The notes under the pieces are model-generated. The model made no database searches. It was not told where the DNA came from and was given only the letters and a program-made list of their open reading frames with translations. Below, one piece after another: positions 10,076 to 61,834 of a DNA stretch of 64,000 nucleotides (positions are counted from its first letter, which is position 1; the number at the start of each line of letters is the position of its first letter). Both the position numbers and the translations under genes were made by a program. Location: contig DASC01000135.1 of assembly GCA_002503595.1 (NCBI GenBank), forward strand, positions 2,596 through 66,595, read 5' to 3'. The stretch is from Candidatus Methanogaster sp. UBA203 (GTDB lineage Archaea > Halobacteriota > Methanosarcinia > Methanosarcinales > Methanogasteraceae).

Positions 10076-10094
10076 TATAAATTCAAAGATAACT

Positions 10095-11345
10095 TCAAAC
10101 CCACCCATTCCTCCACACCATCACCCCCACGTACACGCTCCCAACCACATTCCCCACCACCCACGCATACCCCACCCCAATAACCCCAAATATAGTCATA
10201 AACACATACCCAAGCCCAACCACTAGCCCACAGATCACCCCACTCAGAACCACAATCCCACGCACATCCTTCTGAATCCTCTTGATCGCAAAATAAACAT
10301 AATTCACCCCGATAAACAAACTTGCTACAACCATCACCCGCAGCACCCCCAACCCACCTCCGGCATAATCCTCCCCGATCACTCCAAGCGCTACGCCACC
10401 GCAAACATACAGCACAGCCGCAGCCGGAACCAGCAGCGAAAAGATAACAATCAGCGACTTTACAACGGTTCTTTTCAATGCCGCACCATGGCTGCCCTCA
10501 ACAAAGAGCGATATGCTGATCGCATTCGGTATCATGAAGAGCAGAGACACTACTGCAAACGCGATATAATAATACGCCGCCTGCTCGGCCCCGAGCATGT
10601 TCAGAACCATAATCGGTATTATCATATTCGGAGCCGCCATGAAGATGCCCACAAGATAATTACCGGCAGAGAAATGAAATGCATCGTTCAGAAAGCCACG
10701 ATCAACCACAAGCATAGGTCTGATCCCTAAACTTATTAGAAAAACAACTGCAATCGAAAGCGCAAACAGAAACGATATTCCGACTGCGCTGAAGATGCCG
10801 ATTGCTCCGAGTGTGGTGAGGGGGATTAAGAAGATGACTCTTGAGCCGACGACAATGCTCTGAAAAAACTGAAACTCAGCTTTTCGTATTGCGACAAACG
10901 AGATTCCAGTTAACGCGGTCACAGAACTTGCTGCAAGGAAGATTAAAAAGAGTGATGCGTTCTGCGGCGATTTTAGAAGATCAAGTTCTGGCGAAACTGT
11001 ATCCACACCTGCGATGAATATCGTACCGAGTAGAACCGCGAAAAATGTTGTTACGAGTGCAGATGTACTGAATGTCCTACTCTTATCATTTGTCGGGAAG
11101 AATCTGATAACCGAGAAGTCCAAACCTAATCTGGAGAGTGAGACGAGCAGAGCCATTAAGGAGATGAGCGCAGCTGCGATGCCAAAGTCTTCCTTCAGAT
11201 ATAACTTTGCCGCAAGCATCCAGAAGATGAAGCCGAAGCCTGCGCTTGATATGTGTGTGAGCACGATGAATAGAGAGTTTCTGAGGAGATGGTCATGGAA
11301 GCAGTGGTTCATCTCTGCTCTGGTTTTTGGCATTCTGATTTTCAT
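10095..11345 (-). CDS. Polysaccharide/oligosaccharide flippase (Wzx-like, MOP superfamily)
   Basis: 416 aa, hydrophobic throughout with about 12-14 helices. Its position in the glycan cluster fits a flippase. Confidence 0.7.
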   Translation of the reverse strand: MKIRMPKTRAEMNHCFHDHLLRNSLFIVLTHISSAGFGFIFWMLAAKLYLKEDFGIAAALISLMALLVSLSRLGLDFSVIRFFPTNDKSRTFSTSALVTTFFAVLLGTIFIAGVDTVSPELDLLKSPQNASLFLIFLAASSVTALTGISFVAIRKAEFQFFQSIVVGSRVIFLIPLTTLGAIGIFSAVGISFLFALSIAVVFLISLGIRPMLVVDRGFLNDAFHFSAGNYLVGIFMAAPNMIIPIMVLNMLGAEQAAYYYIAFAVVSLLFMIPNAISISLFVEGSHGAALKRTVVKSLIVIFSLLVPAAAVLYVCGGVALGVIGEDYAGGGLGVLRVMVVASLFIGVNYVYFAIKRIQKDVRGIVVLSGVICGLVVGLGYVFMTIFGVIGVGYAWVVGNVVGSVYVGVMVWRNGWV

Positions 11346-18562: not shown

Positions 18563-18981
18563 GTCAGTAGCCTCCGTATCTAATCATCATGAGATGCGGC
18601 AAGGGAAAATGCCCCCACTCCCCCCCACACTTATCTCATGATAATAATGATTATGACATTCATAGTATAAAAAGTTAACGGTCACGCGTCATGTCAGCTA
18701 AAACCCCGTGTCGCGTCAGATAAAGCCCCGACCGTCGTCAGGTAGACGCGTCGCTACCGGTTTTGACGTGCCAGACATCATCCCGATTCAGGTTGTGGCA
18801 GGCAACAGACGCAATCCTGCACAGACACGATCCCGCCGTCTGCCGAGATGGACGATCTGAAAAGAGGCAGCTATCAAGAGCGAACGTGCGGTCAAGCCGC
18901 TGCAAGCGCATCACCTGGATCTGGTGTGTGGTTTGAAGATCAGGGATCGAGGATAAACCTCAAAAAAGCGTAACTACTCAT

Positions 18982-19152
18982 GGGCACTGTCTGAAAAGCC
19001 AGTGATTTATCACCGCGGAATACGAAGTATCGCCGAAGGCCGAACGCGGAGGGCACAGAGTTTCGAGACTGTATAAGTCCTCTGCGTGGCTTTGCGCACT
19101 CTGTGGTAGAATCTAAGGGCGTGGCGATATCACTGGAAAAATCGAGAGTGCC
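18982..19152 (+). repeat. MITE-like repeat, copy A (about 171 bp)
   Basis: It aligns along its length with 61394-61565. Shared elements are atttatcaccgcggaatacgaagtatcgccgaagg, the triple motif ctctgcgtgg-ctttgcgca-ctctgtggt, and the termini ggcactgtc / gagagtgcc. Confidence 0.75.
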
Positions 19153-19168
19153 TGATGCACATAAGAAG

Positions 19169-19306
19169 ATGGATCAGGTTCTCGAAACATTGGAGGTGCT
19201 CATGGATGAAGCGACGTTGAAACGGTTAAAGCGGGGGGAAGAAGAACTAAAAGCAGGTAATTATGTAGATGCCGCGCCAGGAGAGATTGAAGAGATATTA
19301 AGGTGA
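19169..19306 (+). CDS. Small RelB-like antitoxin (45 aa from ATG 19169; the track ORF starts at GTG 19103 inside the repeat)
   Basis: MDQVLETLEVLMDEATLKRLKRGEEELKAGNYV. Its stop lies 2 nt before the RelE-like ATG at 19309. Confidence 0.45.
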   Translation: MDQVLETLEVLMDEATLKRLKRGEEELKAGNYVDAAPGEIEEILR

Positions 19307-19308
19307 GT

Positions 19309-19575
19309 ATGTATAGAGCGCGTTTTTTAAAAACTTTTTTGAGGCAAGAGAAGAAGCTTAATGCAAATACGAAAGAGTGACTTATAAAAGCCGTTAAGGA
19401 AATTTTAAACGATCCCTATTCAGGAATTAATCTAAAAGGGGATTTAAGAGAATATTGGAAGAAAAGAGTTGGAAAGTATCGAATAATATATAAGATAGGT
19501 GAATCAGAAAAGATAGTGATTTTCTTTGACGTGAATTTGAGAAAGAAAGTCTACAATAGGTTAAAAAGGAGATGA
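19309..19575 (+). pseudogene. RelE/ParE-family toxin with an in-frame TGA at codon 24 (19378-19380)
   Basis: MYRARFLKTFLRQEKKLNANTKE*LIKAVKEILNDPYSGINLKGDLREYWKKRVGKYRIIYKIGESEKIVIFFDV shows the RelE/ParE hallmark (W..RVG.YRIIY). It is absent from the ORF track because of the stop. Confidence 0.65.
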
Positions 19576-19595
19576 AACTTCTTTCTTGTGATATT

Positions 19596-19885
19596 TCTTC
19601 AAACCCACCCCTCCTCCCTCCACACCATCACCCCAACGCACACGCACACGCACCCAACCCCATTCGCAACTACCCACGCATATCCAACCCCAACGACCCC
19701 AAACATCGTCATGAACAGATACCCCAATCCAACCAATGACACAAAAATCACCCCGTTCAGAACCACAATCCCCTTAACATCCTTCTGCACCCACTTGATC
19801 GCAAAATAAACATAATTCACCCCGACAAATAAACTTGCAACCACCATCGCCCGCAGCACTTCCACCCCGCCAGCAGCATAATCCG
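19596..19885 (-). pseudogene. Diverged 3' fragment of a second Wzx-type flippase gene
   Basis: VLRAMVVASLFVGVNYVYFAIKWVQKDVKGIVVLNGVI..GVGYAWVV aligns with the C-terminus of the intact flippase (VLRVMVVASLFIGVNYVYFAIKRIQKDVRGIVVLSGVI..GVGYAWVV). Homology stops at a repeat-derived sequence, gcgcactctgcggt. Confidence 0.75.
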
Positions 19886-20072
19886 CGCCCCTTCGCGCAC
19901 TCTGCGGTTATATTCTGTGTTTGGTTACAGTAATGCCTGCCCTTCGGGCATGGCATCGATAGAATCGAATCCTTCTGGGATTCTATTATGCCTCATGTCC
20001 TGGATAGTTCCTGCATAGTGAAGTCCCACGATAGTGGTTTAGGTACCTGAGTAGTTACAAAAAAGCTTAACA

Positions 20073-20144
20073 AGCCTCGGGCGGGAATTGAACCCGCGAC
20101 CTCGTCCTTACCAAGGACGCGCTATACCGCTAAGCCACCGAGGC
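20073..20144 (-). tRNA. tRNA-Thr (anticodon GGU)
   Basis: Hand-folded cloverleaf: acceptor GCCTCGG/CCGAGGC, anticodon stem CGTCC/GGACG with loop TTGGTAA, T-arm GCGGG-TTCAATT-CCCGC, discriminator T. No encoded CCA. Confidence 0.85.
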
Positions 20145-20428
20145 GCAGGTCTCTGATTGCTGCGGATTGATTATGAACATTTCGGTTCGCAGGGGGTGAT
20201 TTTTTGTTATCTTCTGAAATGGGTTTTGGAAAAACCACAGAGAGCACAGAGAAAACAACAACTCTCTGTGCCCTCCGTGTCCTCTGTGGTTAATCTTCTT
20301 TGCCATAATCCATACCCACCCAGAAGAAATTAAAAAGCCACCGCGGGGGCGGGGGTGAGCAGTTACGTGGATCCTGGGATACAGTCATGAGAAAACCATT
20401 AATACCCGCGCAGTAACCATCAGTACAG

Positions 20429-30652: not shown

Positions 30653-31789
30653 TCACGCAGGCGGCTTTGCGACCAGATGCACATCCCCGGTTCCGAGATT
30701 GATCGGCTGCCCGACGATTACGTTCTCGGTGACACCGCTTAACTCATCGATATCGCCGCGTATGCCGGCATCGATCAGGTGATTCACAGTCACCTCGAAT
30801 GCAGCCCGAGCGAGGATGCTTGCCTTCTCGCCGGATAGCCCGTGCCTTCCGATCTGCTTGACCTCTCCGTCGCAGGTCATCATGTCTGCTGCAAGCATGA
30901 TATGTTTTACATCCACGTTTAACCCCTGTTCGCGCAGTGTCTCCATGATCTCCTTAATGATCGAGTTTCTGGCAGCCTCGATCCCGAAGACCTCGCACAT
31001 CTCGCCTGGGTGGTTGGAGGTCGTTCGGGCAGGGTCGACACCCTCGATATCGAGAACCTCCTGAAGTGCCGTGCCTTCGGTATAGAGCACGTATTCAGAA
31101 CCTTCCTTCTGTATAACCACCCTTGGGATCGCCTCAATGCCTTTGATCAATACTTTCTTAAGATTCCTGCCCAACTGCACCAGGGAACCAAGATTGGACT
31201 CCTTAGGACTGAGTATGAGCGTGTACCCCTCCACCTCGATCGGGATCTTTAGTTTGGCTTCGAGTTTTTCGATGATGTCGGATAGTGTCAGGTCTCGTTC
31301 ATACAGGGTATCCTCATCCACTTCGATTAAGATCACCAAATTTGCGCGGTCTGTAATAATTCCACCCAGATCGGGGATTGTCGTCTTCTGGACCTCCCAT
31401 GCGACAGCCTGAGCTTTCTTCTTGCTTGCGCCGTCTCTCAGGTACACGGCCATCACCGGTGTACTCGGGTTCTTTCGCGCATCAAGGATCTCGATCAATC
31501 TCGGGAGCCCGAGCGTTACGTTGATCTCGGCGACACCGGCATAATGAAAGGTACGCATCGTCATCTGTGTACCGGGTTCGCCTATCGACTGCGCGGCGAC
31601 CACGCCGACCGGATCGCACGGCTCGATGCAAGCAGCCGCATACCCGCCCATAACATGGTCGATGATATCATCCAGTTGTTTCCTGGTCGGTTTGACTTCC
31701 AGGAGTTCCCCTCGCAGGGTATCCTTGATCTTTGGCGGCAATGAGAGCACACTTACACTCTTCTCGATACTATCTGCCGTTACGGTCAT
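30653..31789 (-). CDS. rpoA2: DNA-directed RNA polymerase subunit A''
   Basis: 378 aa. [20 protein letters not shown] and the C-terminal [17 protein letters not shown] are present. The start overlaps the rpoA1 stop. Confidence 0.95.
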
Positions 31790-34419
31790 TCTGGTACCTC
31801 CATCACGTCCTTTACAATTCGCTGTATATGGCTACGATCGAAGCCGCGTGACGGGTCGACTCCGTCCTCGCCGTATTTTGCCTGCACGACCACGCCACGG
31901 GTATCCCTGACCGTACCGTCATGCTGCGCCTCCAGATCCTGAAGCGCATTCACCATCCTCCGCTGGAGATACCCTGACTGGGACGTCCTGACAGCAGTGT
32001 CCACGAGGCCCTCCCTGCCACCGATGGCGTGGAAGAAATACTCGACCGGAGAGAGCCCGCTCTTATATGATGCCTGTACAAATCCGTGCGCCTCTGCGCC
32101 GCGATCTCCTTTCTTGAAATGTGGAAGCGTTCTACCTGAGTACCCGCGCTGGATGCGGGCACCCCGCACCGACTGCTGTCCGACACACGCAGCCATCTGT
32201 GCAAGATTCAGCATCGAGCCCCTGGCTCCTGAAACCGCCATCGCAACCGCAGAGTTGTCGATACCAAGATGCAATCCAGCCTTGTCGCCAGCCTCGTCAC
32301 GAACCTTTCCGAGAATCTGCATGATCCGAAGCTCAAGCGTCTCTTCACTGGTTCGCCCGGGCAGCGACTCAAGCTCGTTATGTTCATACTTGTCGATCAG
32401 ACTTGCGATACTCTCCTTTCCGTACATCGCGTCCTTATTGATCTCCTGTATCTGTTTGACCGCCTCTTTCGGGATATCCTCATCATCAATTCCGAAACTG
32501 AATCCGTGATACATGATGCCCCGGATCGCAAGGTTTGTCATATTGTCAATAAACGCAGCCCCGGCAGCAGGTCCGAACTCCCTGATAACCTTGTTTACGA
32601 TCTTTCCCTTGAACGCGCCGATCGATTTCTCATCGATGGTTCCACAAAGCAGTTCTCCATTCTTTATGACGACGTAAGCATCGTTCGGGCAGTTCTCCTT
32701 CTTGCATTCGGCACATTCCTCGCATATCTCTGCCTTGTATTCGAGGTTTAACCCTTCCGGTAGAATCTGGCTGAATATCTGCTTTCCGGTCCAGTAGGGG
32801 GTGCCATCCCCGATATGGTCCGGCGGCGGCAGGTCGCGCACCCCGGATTTCCGCAGGATCTCGAGTGCGCTGTTCTTGTCGATCGCTTTCTCACGCGTCA
32901 ACAGGAACATGCCTGTTATGTGATCGTGTATCCCGCCGATGATCGGACCGCCAAATCTTGGCGAGAGGATGTTCTCCTGAACCCGCATCAGTATCGCCGC
33001 CTCTGCCCTTGCCTCCTCGTTCTGCTGTACATGGAGATTCATCTCATCGCCATCGAAATCAGCGTTGTATGGCGGGCAGACCGCTGGATTTAACCGGAAC
33101 GTCTTTCCGGGCATGACCTTGACCTCGTGCGCCATGATACTCATCTTGTGAAGCGACGGCTGCCTGTTGAAGAGCACAATGTCGCCATCCTTGAGATGCC
33201 GATCCACGAACCATCCGTATTCGAGCATCTCCGCGATCTCCTCGCAGGTTGTATCGCTGATTCGCAGTCTGTGCCCATCTGTCCGGACCACGTAGTTCGC
33301 GCCCGGGTGATTGGTCGGACCGCGGCGCACATACTCCTTGAGTTCCTCGATGTTTCTCGGCACAACCTTGAACGTGAGCGTCAGTTCTCTTGCAATCGCC
33401 TCAGGAATGCCGACCTCGTTGATCGACAGGTTGGGATCCGGCGAGATAACAGTCCTGCCGCTGAAATTGACACGCTTGCCAGAGAGACTGCCCCTGAACC
33501 GTCCTTCCTTCCCCTTCAGGCGCTGGGACAGGGTCTTTAAAGGTCTTCCGCTCCTGTGCCTTGCCGGAGGTATCCCTGATACGCTGTTGTCCATAAAAGT
33601 GGTTACATGGTACTGCAAGAGTTCCCAGAGATCCTCGATGATCAACTGCGGCGCGCCCGCTTCCTTATTCTCCTGGAACCTCTGGTTTATCCTGATAATA
33701 TCAACGAGTTTGTGTGTCAGATCGTCCTCGCTGCGCTGCCCTGTCTGGAGCGTGATCGACGGGCGCACAGTGACCGGAGGCACGGGCAGCACCGTCATGA
33801 TCATCCATTCAGGGCGCGCGTTACCTGGATCCATGCCAAAGACAGGGAGATCTTCATCCGGTATGTGCTCGAACCAGTTCCTGATATCGCTTGGAAGCAG
33901 TTTGTCCCCGGCCTCATAATACGTGGTAGGTTTTTCGTACGTGATCTTCAGTTGGTGCTCGCCGCAGTACGGGCACACTTCGACCTTGCTTGCCTCGCCA
34001 AAGACCTGTTCAACTATCGCATCGATGGTCTGCCCCTGACTCCTCCGAGCCGAGATATGCTCGATATACTCTTTCTTCCGCCCTGCATCCAGAAGCAACC
34101 GGCTGCAACTTCTGCACGTACTCCTGAGTAGATTCCGTATCTGCTTGGCAAACCCGACGTGCACACAGGGAGCCACCAGTTCTATGTGCCCAAAGTGACC
34201 CGGGCACTCCCCAGCCCTTCCGTTGCATGTTTTGCACCGCAATCCCGGATCGATGACTCCGAGTCTGGGATCCATGAGCCCCATATCAATCGGAAAACCA
34301 TCCTCATCATAAGTATCTGCCGTGATAATTCTGGTGACACTCATATTCCGGTATTCCCGCGGTGAGATCAAGCCGAATTTTATCCTTGAGATTTTCTTTG
34401 GAGCACTGATCTGTTTCAT
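31786..34419 (-). CDS. rpoA1: DNA-directed RNA polymerase subunit A'
   Basis: 877 aa. Zn motifs are [17 protein letters not shown], the catalytic motif is [14 protein letters not shown], and the bridge helix region is present. Confidence 0.95.
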
Positions 34420-34755
34420 TGTATACCAGTCTCTGATGTCTGTGGGATAAAGGTTTTGATTCGAAGGGGTTGTCGTGCCTTGTGGTGTTGACGCCCACGC
34501 ACGGAAGCAGGGTTTTTATGTGAGTGGGCACAACCCGATATTCCAGTGACAGAATAGCCGGCAGACTGGACTTTCACAGTGCCTGTGAGACGAACGTGAC
34601 ATCCTCTTCACAAATTCCTTTATATCGATGTAACATCATAATGATCATTACCACGTCCTTTTTTAAATCCGTTCGCGTGGGTGGGGCTGTGCAGCCCTCT
34701 TTCACCAGGGCTGCACACCTCAGGGCATCACCCCCTGATAATGCCATCCGCAAAT

Positions 34756-34945
34756 CATGAAACGGTATCGGAAAATCCAGTGAAATCACTATATCCTTAA
34801 ATTTTACCGCAGAGCACGCGGAGAACGAGAGAGGCACCAGAAAACCAAAGCGAGGATCGAAACGGTATCGAAACTCTGCGACCTCCGCGTTCTCCGCGGT
34901 GATAAATCACTTGATTTTTAGACAGTGTCCATGAAACGGTATCGG
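34756..34945 (-). repeat. MITE-like repeat, copy C (short variant, inverted), including flanking 16-nt perfect direct repeats
   Basis: catgaaacggtatcgg occurs at 34756-34771 and at 34930-34945. The interior (34772-34929) carries gacactgtctaaaaatcaagtgatttatcaccgcgg (reverse strand) and the ctc(t/c)g(c/t)g triple motif. Confidence 0.7.
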
Positions 34946-35126
34946 TCGACACGCGGGTCACGTACATGACTTGAATAGACCGTGATTATCAGGCCAAGTT
35001 GCACAGCAGCGGCACAGCCATTAACACAGGTTCCACCGGTTTTATCCACAACTCGGGCAATAAACCCGGGTTCATGGAATATTTCGTAACGCCGGATGAT
35101 GGCACCATAATGCTTGCGCGGAAGTT

Positions 35127-37062: not shown

Positions 37063-38592
37063 ATGGCAAACCGGAAGGAATTTCACGAGTTGATACCGAT
37101 CGGAAGAGCGGAAGAGATACTCAGATCGATCATCCGCAGCAGCACCGAAGTCGTGCCGCTCGATCTGGCATACCACAGCGTCCTTGCGGAGGATGTTTTC
37201 GCGACTACCGATGTGCCATCGTTTGACCGTGCAGACATGGATGGCTACGCAGTGCGTGCGGCAGATACGTACAGAGCGCGGGAAGAAGATCCGGTGCAGC
37301 TTGTGATCGCGGGCAGAATCCCTGCCGGGGACGTTCCGTCGCTTACGATTTCTGAGGATGTTGCTGCCGAGATATCCACAGGCGCGATGCTCCCCACGGG
37401 CGCTGATGCGGTCGTGATGGTCGAGTACACCAAGGAAGGCGAATCTTCGTCTTCGGTCTCGATTTACAGGGCGGTCCACGTATATGAGAATGTCATGCGG
37501 GCAGGGGCCGACATCCGGGGCGGGACGCGGGTGCTTCCAAAAGGCGCGCTTCTCGGATCGCGTGAGGCAGGTGTTCTTGCAGCCATCGGAGTCTCGCATG
37601 TCAGGGTTCACTCGCTTCGCATCGGAATCATCTCGACCGGAAACGAACTCGTCTCTGCGGGCGAGAAGCTGGATCCGGGACAAGTATACGATGTGAACGC
37701 GCATACGGTATCTGCTGCGGTGCGTGAATGCGGAGCAACTCCTGTTGCGTACGGGATCGTTTCAGATGACGAAAAAAAGACGGTGGAAGTCCTCATAAAA
37801 GCCATTTCAGAGTGCGATCTGATCCTCACATCCGGAAGCACGTCTGCCGGGTCTGGAGACATCATGCCCCGCATCCTCGAGGAGTACGGTGAGGTACTCG
37901 CGCACGGGATCAATATCAAGCCCGGTAAGCCGATGATAATAGCGAAGATGGAAAAACCAGTTATAGGGCTTCCAGGTTTCCCAACATCGGCACTGAGCAT
38001 GTTTTATTATTTAGTAGCTCCGCGAATACGCGATGTTCTCGGATACGTTGCAGGTGTAGCAGCGAGACCGCAGCAGGCTGTGCTCGGATCGATGATCCAG
38101 TCGGCAGGAAGGCACCAGCTCCTGCCGGTAGCACTGGTGCGGGGGATGGCGTATCCTGTGATCAAGGGTTCCGGCGCAATCACAGCGCTCGCATCCGCGG
38201 ACGGGTTTATCGAGATCCTTCCCGAGACCGAAATCATGGAGGCAGGAGAGACGGTTGAGGTCACGCTCTTTGGGGATGCGGCTGCAAATGATCTCGTATT
38301 TGCGGGAGCGGCTTTTTATGAGGTGAACCGGATCATCGGGATGCTGCCGTTTCGTGTGCGGATGATCCAAACTGGCGTTGCCGCCGGAATCGATGCTCTG
38401 CGGAACGGGATAGCAGATATCGCAGGAATCCCTCTTTCCACAGATGAACTGCCTGATATGGATGGAGTTTCGGCCATACATGAATTTCTGCGCGGAGATG
38501 GGGCGTATACGCTCATTGCACTTCACGACCGGATCGATTCTGAGAATATAAAGGCGTTTCTTTCGGCGATCGAATCTACCAGTGCTGCATGA
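37063..38592 (+). CDS. moeA: Molybdopterin molybdenumtransferase MoeA with a short C-terminal PBP-like extension
   Basis: MoeA core motifs are VPSFDRADMDGYAV, ISTGAMLP.GADAVV and SGSTSAGSGD. The C-terminal 100 aa or so (GIDALRNGIADIAGIPL) resembles a partial periplasmic-binding-like domain. The ATG at 37063 is preferred over the track start at 36871. Confidence 0.8.
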   Translation: MANRKEFHELIPIGRAEEILRSIIRSSTEVVPLDLAYHSVLAEDVFATTDVPSFDRADMDGYAVRAADTYRAREEDPVQLVIAGRIPAGDVPSLTISEDVAAEISTGAMLPTGADAVVMVEYTKEGESSSSVSIYRAVHVYENVMRAGADIRGGTRVLPKGALLGSREAGVLAAIGVSHVRVHSLRIGIISTGNELVSAGEKLDPGQVYDVNAHTVSAAVRECGATPVAYGIVSDDEKKTVEVLIKAISECDLILTSGSTSAGSGDIMPRILEEYGEVLAHGINIKPGKPMIIAKMEKPVIGLPGFPTSALSMFYYLVAPRIRDVLGYVAGVAARPQQAVLGSMIQSAGRHQLLPVALVRGMAYPVIKGSGAITALASADGFIEILPETEIMEAGETVEVTLFGDAAANDLVFAGAAFYEVNRIIGMLPFRVRMIQTGVAAGIDALRNGIADIAGIPLSTDELPDMDGVSAIHEFLRGDGAYTLIALHDRIDSENIKAFLSAIESTSAA

Positions 38593-38770
38593 CGGCGCGG
38601 GGTGCAGCGCCGGAGGCATAAAATCATGAATGCTTCGACAGTGCAGTTGCATGGCAGGGATGTTTGATGTGAGTGGCTGAGACGGATTACTTTCGAAACA
38701 AAATTTAGGGGTTGTGTCACCCCCTACATCACGACAGTTTTTTATAGATCGGTACACAAGTTCGGCATAT

Positions 38771-52326: not shown

Positions 52327-52561
52327 ATCTGGAAATCGAATTTTTGAACATGCTCAGGGCTTGTTAGGAAATAACCTGGCGGAATTAGTGCTATTTGCCC
52401 AAACGCGTGAGTTCGTGACTATGAGCGCAAGCGAAGCAGAGCCGAAGGCATAAAATCGGCACCAAGGGATGGCTGCACCAATGCTGCGCATTCACGAATA
52501 AACGAATGTATGACAAAATATAAAAACTATAGAATAATTAAAAAATAAAAAATAAAATCGC

Positions 52562-53484: not shown

Positions 53485-53812
53485 CAAACTTTTCACAAAA
53501 GTTTGATCAAAAACTGCCCTTCGGGGTTATACACCCGTTTTTCACTCGCAAACTTTCCACAAAGCTTTGACGGTTCCGCTGGCGCTTCGCATTCAAAAAA
53601 TGGTCTCCGACCCGAAGGGCATTTCTTACTCGCAAACTTTTCACAAAAGTTTGATCAAAAACTGCCCTTCGGGGTTATACACCCGTTTTTCACTCGCAAA
53701 CTTTCCACAAAGCTTTGACGGTTCCGCTGGCGCTTCGCATTCAAAAAATGGTCTCCGACCCGAAGGGCAGTTTTTACTCGATTTTTTGTGAAAAAATCGT
53801 GTGAAAGAATCA
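53485..53812. repeat. Tandem repeat of 148-bp units (2 near-identical units plus a diverged hairpin tail), each unit made of two related half-units of about 74 bp
   Basis: caaacttttcacaaaagtttga starts at 53485 and again at 53633. The two units differ at only a few positions near 53620-53625. Perfect 9-bp/3-nt-loop hairpins are caaactttt-cac-aaaagtttg and cgatttttt-gtg-aaaaaatcg. Confidence 0.9.
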
Positions 53813-53814
53813 GC

Positions 53815-55728
53815 TCACGCCACCCGTACAGTCTCGAGGTTTCTCGGCACCTGAGTTTTGATGTGGTGTTTGTTATAAATCACACTTGCAAGACTCAGGC
53901 AGTTCCTCTCATCCCCATGCTCGGTCATCACAAGTTCCGGTTTCGGACGCATGTTCTTGATGTATTTTACCAGTTGGTTCCGGTCCGAATGCCCTGAAAA
54001 CCCATCGATCGTGCAGACCTCGAGTTTGATCTTGAGCAACTCGGACACGCCCCTCCTTGTTATCGGTATCTCGGTCCTCCCCTTCTGGATACGCTGTCCC
54101 ACAGTCCCCTCGGCTTGATACCCGACAAATACCAGAGTGCTCTTCTCATCCGGTGCAAATGCCTTGAGGTATTCCATGATCGGACCGCCGTTCATCATTC
54201 CCGAGGTCGAGATGATAATCGCGGGATCGATATTGCTCAAAAGATCCTCCCGCATCTTCTGCGAATCCACCTTGACGAAACAATCCGCAAGGAACGGATT
54301 CATCCCTTTGTGGAAGATCTGATTCCGCAGATCGCTGTTCAGATACTCAGGATGCGTGGTGTGGATCGCTGTTGCCTCCCAGATCATGCCGTCCAAATAT
54401 ATCGGAACCTGCTCGATCTTCTTCTGCCGCATCGCCTCTTCGAGAACCAGCATCACATCCTGACTTCGCCCGACCGCAAAAGCAGGGATCAGCACCTTGC
54501 CCCCGCGTTCGATAGTCCTCTTCACGATCTCTGATAGGTTCTTCTCTGCAACATTCCGCGGAGGCTGGAAATCATTCGGACCGCCATAAGTCGCCTCCAT
54601 GACCACGGTCTCCGCTCTCGGGAAATTGTTGATAGCACTGTCGAACAATCTCGTCTTTTCATACTTGAAATCGCCAGTAAAGACCACGTTGTGCAACCCA
54701 TCGCCGACGTGGAAGTGAGCGACCGCTGATCCGAGGATGTGCCCTGCATTGTGGAGTGTCAGTTTCATATCAGGCGCGATATCGGTAACGCTCCCATAAT
54801 CAAGAACAATTGTGTGTTTGAGCGCTTCCCTGACCATATCCGAGCTATACGGGATCCGCCTTCCTTCCTTGTTTGCGACATCGATGTAATCGATCTGCAG
54901 AAGCGCCATCAGATCGCGGGAGGGGGGTGTAGCATACACAGGACCACGGTACCCATACTTGAACAAGAGCGGCACAAGCCCGCAGTGGTCGAGATGCGCA
55001 TGTGTCACAACTACGCCATCGAGGTGTGTGATAGGGGAGACTTCAGGGATGTACAGGTATGGTGTGCTGCCGTTGTCATCAGCACCCACATTGATGCCGC
55101 AATCAATCAACACTCTCGTTTCCGGAGTTGACAGCAAGAAGCAACTCCGTCCAACCTCTCTACAACCTCCGAGTGCTGTTATGCGTATCCAGTTATCAGG
55201 AGATGTGATGCTGCGATGTATCTTCTCCCCGAGTTCCCGCAGGATCTTTTTGCGCTCGTCAAGACTCTCGCGCAGCACATGCCTGACGTTCTTTATCGTT
55301 GACGATTCGATCGGTGGGGTGCGCACGACCTTTGGCGTCCAGCCGATGTGTCTTGTGATCTCACGAAGCATTGATCCGTGCTGTCCGATAACGAGCCCTG
55401 GCTTCTCTGCCTCGATCGTAACCTCTCCAGTATCGCTATCAAAGCAGTAGTCGGTGATGCCAGCATCCGCCGGCGCTATCTTCTCGATTGCAGCAGTCGC
55501 ATCAGCAGGATCATACAGCACACTCTTGTCAGGACGTATCACGATCCGCTTTCGCACATCCTTCGCAATCGACCGCACGATCTCGCCGTTATCTGCCAGT
55601 TTCCGCGGCTCCTTCGTGTATATCACCAGTTCGGGACCCTCGAACTCCACGTCCGAGATCGTCACTCCGACCGGAAGATTCTTCCGTATCCGCTGCCTTA
55701 ATTCAGACAGTGTCTCTTCTATACCCAT
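53815..55728 (-). CDS. aCPSF1 / FttA: beta-CASP metallo-beta-lactamase ribonuclease with N-terminal KH domains
   Basis: 637 aa. It has N-terminal KH repeats, the motif [11 protein letters not shown] and beta-CASP motifs. Its ATG overlaps the psmB stop by 1 nt. Confidence 0.92.
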
Positions 55729-61322: not shown

Positions 61323-61393
61323 CTTTAATCACATTCGTTGCCTGTATGTTACCTTGCCACTATGCGGACAAAGTACTTAATGATCGTGATCGC

Positions 61394-61565
61394 GACACTG
61401 TCTGAAAATCAAGTAATTTATCACCGCGGAATACGAAGTATCGCCGAAGGCGGAACGCGGAGGGGACAAGAGTTTCGGGGTCGTTTTCAACCCTCTGCGT
61501 GGCTCTGCGCACTCTGCGGTAGAATCTAAGGGCATGGCAATTTCAATAGAAAAATCGACAGTGTC
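61394..61565 (+). repeat. MITE-like repeat, copy B (about 172 bp)
   Basis: Termini are gacactgtc (61394-) and gacagtgtc (-61565), which form an inverted repeat. The interior is collinear with copy A, including ctctgcgtgg-ctctgcgca-ctctgcggt. Confidence 0.75.
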
Positions 61566-61834
61566 CGTGATCGCTATTCCGCTGCCCATACCGGGCTTGC
61601 CGAACTGCTCAACCGCGCAACAGCTCGTCCGGACTGCGAGCACGCTTACCAGGGCAATCGGGACGGACCTGAGGGAGGCGTGTATGAAACGGGATCAGTT
61701 CAAGCGGTTAATTGTCCTGATACAGCGGGAACGCGGATATCTCGCGAAAGCGTTTGCAAGTCGCAGGTTCTCTTTGCATGAAAGCACGGCAAACTTCATC
61801 CTCGTCTGCATCAGCAGTTTAAAACAAGCAATAC

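Follow-up and report, generated by a model that had tools for sequence, protein, structure and literature searches.

A MITE-like family of non-coding repeats with an exchangeable passenger hairpin in an ANME-2c archaeal chromosome

Introduction

Among the archaea, MITEs occur in Sulfolobus, in haloarchaea and in methanogens. In prokaryotes at large, these elements are considered as non-autonomous derivatives of insertion sequences (PMC3852290, PMC7986276). The IS6 family of insertion sequences, which is common in archaea, has known MITE derivatives and produces 8-bp duplications, is characterized by a signature made of GG at the tip followed by cTGTt, the tips of IS26 reading GGCACTGTTGCAAA (PMC7986276).

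The window considered here, i.e., the whole 64-kb stretch of DNA that was analysed, contains three copies, designated A, B and C, of a short repeat for which a preliminary description had left the choice between a non-autonomous transposable element, a family of structured small RNA genes and a protein-binding module. Our preferred reading, to which we assign a probability of about 90%, is that the repeat represents a non-coding MITE family of an ANME-2c archaeal chromosome, carrying an exchangeable hairpin as a passenger. It is a well-known kind of element, apparently undescribed as a family; literature searches by topic and by sequence string retrieved no description of the MITE family or of the heptamer arrays that it contains.

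Host and gene setting

The host is an ANME-2c-type (Ca. Methanogaster-like) methanotrophic archaeon. RNA polymerase subunit A is split in the window into A' (31786-34419) and A'' (30653-31789). CdhD is encoded as well, along with a radical-SAM protein from a cluster bearing the name Mmp10 / methanogenesis marker, and the names attached to the 90% clusters of these proteins are those of ANME-2 cluster archaeon and Candidatus Methanogaster sp. Three public assemblies contain identical contigs. Since the host is archaeal, the logic of bacterial promoters and terminators is inapplicable.

In this lineage, cdhD is located directly upstream of rpoA' (window 34420-35126; 2092-2500 in the related genome L039), where rpoB is expected in most archaea, and the cdhD-rpoA' spacer retains a conserved G+C-rich hairpin, GTGTGCAGCCCTGGTGAAAGAGGGCTGCACAGCC. 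The A'' gene of L039 harbours an intein with a LAGLIDADG domain (904 aa); the 378-aa gene of the window is devoid of intein.

Structural organization of the three copies

Aligned over their whole length, copies A, B and C form a single family of elements of ~150-175 bp, whose main features in the window are the following:

61394..61565, + strand: copy B, complete, 172 bp, left tip GACACTGTCTGAAAATCAAGTAATTT, right tip ...GAAAAATCGACAGTGTC
61385..61393, unstranded: left 9-bp target-site duplication of copy B, CGTGATCGC, read directly and present once in the empty sites
61566..61574, unstranded: right 9-bp target-site duplication of copy B, CGTGATCGC, read directly and from the empty-site comparison
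61418..61524, + strand: central hairpin module of copy B, with the leader TTATCAC and a left arm of CGCGGAG-type units
18983..19152, + strand: copy A, 170 bp, mutated right tip CGAGAGTGCC, without target-site duplication
34767..34929, - strand: copy C, subfamily type 3, right arm CCTCTCTCGTT-CTCCGCGTG-CTCTGCGGT

The collinearity of copies A and B from end to end, as first described, holds with 85.5% identity over 170/172 bp, and every copy contains the shared 15-mer ATTTATCACCGCGGA a single time, the 64-kb window having no further occurrence of it. The inverted tips GACACTGTC / GACAGTGTC noticed at the outset are real and correspond to the outermost part of a longer imperfect inverted repeat of ~30 bp, common to all subfamilies (GGCACTGTCTGAAAATCMAGTGATTT), which begins with G(G/A)CACTGTC. 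In nearly all copies, the terminal pairing opposes G(G/A)CACTGTCTRAAAATCMAGTGATTT to GGCAC(TG/AA)TCGRWWWWTYCAGTGAAATC.

The centre of the element consists of three tandem 9-10-nt units with a CGCRGAG core, facing three complementary CTCYGCG units. The three CTCTGCG units and the complementary CGCGGAG arm of the preliminary description were found in place, the core folding with energies of -30 to -57 kcal/mol. In the window copies and in L008-L035 the hairpin array is arranged as TTATCAC-CGCGGAG-AA-CGCGGAG-GG-CGCAGAG, and the right arm of the copy B hairpin reads CTCTGCG-TGG-CTCTGCG-CA-CTCTGCGG. A 22-nt insert of copy B (61431-61452) forms two mini-hairpins with CGAAG loops; in the variant insert CTGCGAAGCAG of L027, the mini-stem is retained through two changed pairs (ATAC/GTAT vs CTGC/GCAG).

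Copy A shares 97.6% identity with a copy in L026. Copy C had been described as inverted and internally deleted: its inversion is correct, the alignment extending in reverse over both ends and most of the centre, but it is a member of a separate subfamily, 93% identical to copies in other contigs, rather than simply a deleted form of A or B. Compared with these, it is devoid of the 22-nt segment AATACGAAGTATCGCCGAAGGC, contains ~21 additional nt in the right arm and possesses a different right tip, CCGATTGTGCC, the final 6 nt of which are lost. Instead of a 9-bp duplication, its flanks consist of a 16-nt direct repeat, catgaaacggtatcgg, at 34756-34771 and 34930-34945.

None of the copies has any coding capacity, as previously proposed, the overlapping open reading frames (e.g., 61377-61643 and 34574-34837) not being common to the copies. 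With respect to their location, the copies are intergenic as stated; copy B, however, does not interrupt an operon but sits between the divergent genes mmp10 and alaS.

Target-site duplications and the empty site of copy B

Perfect 9-bp target-site duplications, unrelated in sequence to one another, surround seven independent copies, namely copy B (CGTGATCGC), L008 (CGTGGGCAT), L024 (ACGGTCTTG), L015 (ACCACGACT), L025 (GGCTTAACC), L030 (CTATTATTC) and L035 (GCCAAAAAT), and two more copies match at 8/9 positions. For copy B, the orthologous mmp10-alaS spacer from three related ANME-2c genomes (L044, L046 and L043) was used for an empty-site comparison. All three read ...GCGGAATA-GCGATCACG-ATCATTAAG... 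at the place where the window reads ...GCGGAATA-GCGATCACG-[172 bp]-GCGATCACG-ATCATTAAG..., the 181-bp difference between the filled and the empty spacer being exactly one element plus one 9-mer. Such a difference is characteristic of a DDE insertion, cut-and-paste or replicative, in which the cuts are staggered by 9 bp. Loss of the sequence from L044, L046 and L043 is an unlikely alternative, because it would have had to take out precisely one element together with one 9-mer. In the mmp10-alaS spacer, copy B represents a lineage-specific insertion. Owing to the conserved termini, the 9-bp duplications and this precise empty site, the first of the three initial proposals, that of a MITE-like non-autonomous transposable element, was borne out.

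At the site of copy C, the related genome L039 contains a truncated copy at approximately the same place between cdhD and rpoA', which indicates that copy C is an old insertion and rules out the use of L039 as an empty site. The complete copies of the A subtype (A, L026 and L027_5802, the latter at L027 5802-6041) are located in unrelated flanks and display no target-site duplication. They are ~97% identical to each other, which makes them the most alike and youngest-looking copies of the family, and share the right tip CGAGAGTGCC. Shuffling of the flanks by recombination between copies is one possible cause for the missing duplications, in agreement with the rearranged surroundings of copy A. 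The copies of the window do not lie inside a larger known insertion sequence, an eventuality raised in the preliminary description, though copy A is enclosed in a disrupted second MITE.

As to the machinery, a DDE-type transposase is proposed to act in trans, by binding the termini and cutting with a 9-bp stagger. The copies would be mainly selfish DNA and substrates for rearrangements, and the archaeal hairpin would spread through hitch-hiking. No autonomous element bearing the family termini was detected in the window, in 47 archaeal loci or in viral contigs, the last of these being scanned twice with the termini, and outside the known copies the tips occur at chance level only. The proteins common to the loci were discarded as transposase candidates, as they are ABC ATPases and S-layer/dockerin proteins.

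Distribution and subfamilies

The family was searched with an nhmmer profile, with an exact-pattern scan covering one genome per species and with a scan of metagenome contigs. Rather than being limited to the three copies of the window, it comprises about 20 further copies detected by the profile, with conserved ends, in Methanosarcinales, Methanophagales and Ca. Argoarchaeum contigs and in marine metagenomes. The exact-pattern scan, with one genome per species, retrieved full-length relatives in archaea only, i.e., in a Methanosarcinales MAG (four loci), a Methanophagales MAG and Ca. Argoarchaeum ethanivorans. Of its 20 hits, ten fell by coincidence in the coding sequence of phosphoglycerate mutase genes (..ITADHGNAE..), and a further two were likewise coding or else uninformative; all of these were discarded. 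Fifteen additional loci, mostly from one marine sample, were obtained from the metagenome contigs, and a single 6-kb contig carries four MITE copies. The alignment of ~20 distinct copies distinguishes three subfamilies:

Type 1: 22 extra nt between left-arm units 1 and 2; A, B, L026, L027_5802, L022 and L033
Type 2: without extra segments; the CSMAG_151 loci and others
Type 3: longer loop, right arm CCTCTGCGTT-CTCCGCGTG-CTCTGCGGT, right tip CCGATTGTGCC; C, L025, L030, L035 and L027_279

Among plasmids and phages, BLAST gave no match to the whole element and chance-level matches alone (E>=3) to the hairpin core. The best intergenic-looking match of the core, in Caballeronia pNK81, was set aside since it reads like part of a gene.

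The hairpin as an exchangeable cassette

Depending on the copy, identical termini enclose different interiors. In L027 (5995-6255), the termini of the family surround a hairpin of CACAGAG / CTCTGTG units, and in L016 (5260-5515) they surround four ATTCGTG units facing four CACGAAT units. One copy in L033 is chimeric, its left arm being of the CACAGAG type and its right arm of the CTCYGCG type. Conversely, the same CGCRGAG / CTCYGCG hairpin is found in a second MITE family, which differs by its termini (GTAACTACTCAGGTA) and by a duplication of 8 bp, canonical copies of this family occurring in L022 (duplication TAATTATC) and L043 (duplication CTTTTCGG). Since hairpins are swapped between identical termini and the same hairpin is found on other termini, it is the termini that define the transposon, and the hairpin is an exchangeable passenger cassette which does not belong to the transposition signal.

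Similar hairpins of other repeat families occur in the window at these places:

18970..18980, + strand: left tip of a second-family element, GTAACTACTCA, cut off by copy A and preceded by the duplication AAAAAAGC at 18962-18969
19882..20058, + strand: right part of the second-family element, comprising a right hairpin arm of CTCYGCG type and the right tip TAGGTACCTGAGTAGTTAC
20231..20342, + strand: third repeat family, consisting of a CACAGAG / CTCTGTG hairpin and a conserved tail
52383..52519, + strand: degenerate ATTCGTG / CACGAAT hairpin module with GCCGAAGGCATAAAATC, which occurs in L016 between the termini of the MITE studied here

Two stretches, 19886-19900 and 20263-20291, had been taken for fragments of the same element as copies A, B and C. 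They belong in fact to the second and to the third family, respectively, i.e., to two other repeat families with a like hairpin. The units of the third family are arranged as ACCACAGAG-AGCACAGAG ... CTCTCTGTGC-CCTCCGTGT-CCTCTGTGGTTAAT, and further copies of it are present in L021, L033 and L010.

The region 18962-20066 consists of a 1.1-kb segment bounded by the second-family termini and the 8-bp duplication AAAAAAGC, which is repeated after the right tip at 20059-20066 and adjoins there a tRNA-Thr gene (20073-20144, - strand). Copy A lies inside this disrupted second MITE together with a relBE-like toxin-antitoxin pair and with a gene fragment corresponding to a 288-bp duplicate of 10093-10371; the segment gives the impression of a MITE that became either a cargo carrier or a junkyard. 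The 288-bp direct duplication (19597-19884 vs 10093-10371, 81% identity) covers the 3' end of a gene for a 416-aa membrane protein (10095-11345), and its copy stops exactly at the start of the second-family hairpin arm. Between 19167 and 19575, a small antitoxin-like open reading frame (MDQVLETLEVLMDEATLKRLKRGEEELKAGNYVDAAPGEIEEILR) is followed by a RelE/ParE-like frame with an in-frame TGA which, read by eye, is probably a decaying toxin gene.

A few other repeats were observed. A 37-nt motif common to 38589-38625 and 52421-52457, which ends with GC(A/C)G(C/A)GCCG(G/A)AGGCATAAAATC, corresponds to the loop of the ATTCGTG-type hairpin in L016, and both GCCGAAGGC and the CGAAG mini-hairpins recur across several of these repeat families. 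A 148-bp unit with the inner inverted repeats AAAACTGCCCTTCGGG / CCCGAAGGGCAGTTTT forms two tandem copies of 99% identity at 53485-53780, just downstream of an aCPSF1-like gene (53815-55728, - strand). At one end of the window, a 125-nt repeat is present in three copies (1-125, 786-910 and 1743-1867) of 74-97% identity, ~0.8-1 kb apart, and is followed by a conserved 35-mer (126-160 / 912-946).

Occurrence of the same array in bacteria and phage-like contigs

The internal array is also encountered in bacterial DNA, where three hits of the exact-pattern scan proved to be more than coding coincidences. In a 584-kb Phycisphaerales contig (L001), a degenerate hairpin begins with the exact 23-mer TTATCACCGCGGAGAACGCGGAG, and an Acidobacteria contig (L003) contains a four-unit hairpin with the same leader, TTTATCAC. 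L018 contains the array TTTATCAC-CGCGGAG-G-CGCGGAG-AA-CGCGGAG as well as its complement ~440 bp away (1474-1965), the two being on either side of a gene for a 131-aa GxxExxY protein of the PD-(D/E)XK superfamily (TIGR04256, E 3e-44; PF13366); the complementary array being 3' of the gene, a potential long-range stem could form around the open reading frame. Out of five independent GxxExxY loci, four exhibit an (A/T)TCAC leader and three CGCNGAG units at most 40 nt upstream of the start codon, the arrays being located at 1474-1965 in L018, 390-500 in L049, 370-400 in L061, and 370-400 and 800-900 in L064. The example situated in a gatA-gatB spacer reads TTGATTCAC-CGCAGAG-A-CGCAGAG-GA-CGCAGAG-AC-ATG, and one GxxExxY locus comprises, just downstream, an additional hairpin of the archaeal design, devoid of any open reading frame. 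The hosts of these array-bearing loci are unrelated bacteria, including Nitrospirae and Acidobacteria-type. The array of the window follows the same general pattern as L018, L049, L061 and L064, i.e., an (A/T)TCAC leader and at least three CGCNGAG units at 8-10-nt spacing.

When viral contigs were searched for the pattern TCACCGCRGAG-N1-3-CGCRGAG-N1-3-CGCRGAG, 139 exact arrays were retrieved in 104 viral (phage-like) contigs (L071-L174), where far less than one is expected by chance. A complementary array is found within 260 nt of 51 of them, and 59 others, without complement, are followed within 120 nt, often 8-30 nt, by the start of an open reading frame. The same viral contigs also contain other tandem-heptamer hairpins, built from CGCAGAT, CAGTTCC or CGCGAAT units.

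These data raise the possibility, tentative at this stage, that the hairpin module is an independent and widely travelling non-coding element, made of (A/T)TCAC and three Shine-Dalgarno-like CGCRGAG units with or without their complement. In bacteria and phages it might conceivably serve as a gene leader, as a translation-initiation region or as a stem enclosing small selfish genes such as GxxExxY, and the ANME MITEs might, somewhat speculatively, have captured a copy devoid of open reading frame, perhaps from bacteria of the same sediments. The 23-mer shared with Phycisphaerales, the same-leader hairpins and arrays of L003 and L018, the position of the arrays around or upstream of the GxxExxY genes, and the viral arrays with a complement or ahead of open reading frames all speak in favour of such a module. 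On the other hand, within the archaeon the hairpin is confined to MITE-like repeats that are randomly oriented relative to the genes, and tblastn with 40 members of the GxxExxY family found this gene neither in the window nor in the archaeal loci, nor is it present beside the arrays of the 104 viral loci, which means that the link between array and GxxExxY is not general.

GGAG(G), a string similar to a ribosome-binding site, is part of the array units, and CTCC is part of their complement. The array could act as a translation-initiation/standby module, as an RNA stem for processing or as a nuclease recognition array, the data being consistent with all three. It is only within this internal array that the third initial proposal, that of a protein-binding module, may apply. 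One may cautiously envisage the CGCRGAG/CTCYGCG hairpin as a member of an undescribed prokaryote-wide modular class of non-coding elements, although we hold this for doubtful. Such a class would perhaps comprise three or four Shine-Dalgarno-like heptamers behind (A/T)TCAC, in the form of leaders, among them those of GxxExxY nuclease cassettes and of many phage genes, of long-range stems enclosing small genes and of hairpins without open reading frame. It would, again with considerable reserve, cross bacteria, phages and archaea, be picked up by unrelated MITE backbones and function as a signal for expression, RNA processing or nuclease recognition.

Small RNA, regulatory and single-strand transposition readings

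It is improbable that the copies are genes for structured small RNAs, or a cis-acting RNA element, in which the hairpin would be the functional RNA. Such a role would agree with the stable fold of the core mentioned above and of the whole element (z -2.3 and -2.7 for the two strands, relative to shuffled sequences), with the presence, on the + strand of most copies, of G.U instead of A.C mismatches, with the survival of the mini-hairpin stem of the 22-nt insert despite two changed pairs, and with core RNAs that fold better on the + than on the - strand, by 2-9 kcal/mol, in most of 17 distinct cores. The advantage of the + strand fits a transcript but is equally explained by shared descent together with CpG transitions. 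The strand-specific G.U bias was likewise rejected as evidence for an RNA, because in other families the R/Y position of the heptamer, derived from CpG, yields G.T and A.C mismatches alike; at CGC-R-GAG / CTC-Y-GCG, this is expected from CpG transitions without selection for pairing. RNAalifold, applied to the 17 distinct cores, recognized 14 pairs, none of them compensatory, with a covariation term of -0.25, the copies being too alike for a strong test. In Rfam, no family reached the gathering score on the window, and at E<=1 a chance miRNA was the sole match for three loci representing all subfamilies. Moreover, the interior is replaced by unrelated hairpins between identical termini, and the orientation relative to the downstream gene is random (9 same / 7 opposite), which also led us to reject a role as promoter or 5'-UTR in the archaeon and gives no indication of a leader or terminator role. 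The second of the initial proposals, a structured small RNA gene family, thus finds no support in the Rfam matches, in compensatory pairs or in an orientation bias.

Finally, an identity of the hairpins with palindromic elements (PATEs) of the REP/BIME-like or IS200/IS605 type, which a tyrosine HUH transposase moves single-stranded, is very improbable. Long perfect hairpins, like CGAAG mini-hairpins, would have a high stability in single-stranded DNA, as has d(GCGAAGC), and a standalone hairpin module occurs beside TTAC-containing ends in the second family, but HUH elements have neither target-site duplications nor terminal inverted repeats, whereas the present elements have conserved 30-bp inverted termini and duplications of fixed length and varied sequence (9 bp in the first family, 8 bp in the second), which excludes REP/RAYT and IS200/IS605 mobilisation for the whole element and leaves the internal module as the sole part for which a PATE-type reading could survive.

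Implications

The MITE reading provides ANME-2c and related uncultured methane- or alkane-oxidising archaea with a defined, active-looking MITE family. It accounts for contig breaks, contig L038 beginning within copy B, and for local rearrangements, as in the other MITE that encloses copy A along with a toxin-antitoxin pair and a gene fragment. The insertion polymorphisms are, in addition, usable as strain markers. The internal heptamer-array hairpin belongs to a module that is widespread in the intergenic DNA of bacteria and phages, apparently unstudied, and for which no published description was found. Should this module prove functional or self-moving, the archaeal MITE would be evidence that it has crossed the domain boundary, and would offer a simple sequence pattern for its study.

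Comparison with known systems

The arrays resemble the inverted-repeat cassettes of GxxExxY (TIGR04256 / PF13366) by their leader (ATCAC/TTCAC) and their CGCRGAG units, but the archaeal element has no open reading frame between the arms. A link with the 23S rRNA intervening sequences that contain small open reading frames is conceivable. Like REP/BIME and REPIN (RAYT) sequences, the hairpins are abundant, intergenic, modular and sometimes paired; unlike them, they are associated with terminal inverted repeats and target-site duplications of a kind that REPs do not possess, and no RAYT gene was seen here.

With prokaryotic MITEs, the family shares a small size, a non-coding nature, terminal inverted repeats, target-site duplications of constant length, a large number of copies dispersed between genes and insertion polymorphism among related genomes. 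It differs from them in that no parent insertion sequence was found, and by its interior, which is not a remnant of a transposase gene but a swappable hairpin cassette common to other MITE families, bacteria and phages. With respect to a possible parent, the tip GGCACTGTC fits the GG + cTGTt signature of the IS6 family, but the window family duplicates 9 bp in 7/7 clean cases and at the empty site, and the 'caaa' motif is not conserved. Another lead is the IS903 group of the IS5 family, with the tips GGCTTTGTTGAATAAATC, a GGC start and a 9-bp duplication. The family described here would resemble the IS903 group by its 9-bp duplication, by its GGC start and by a loose similarity over the first 18 nt.
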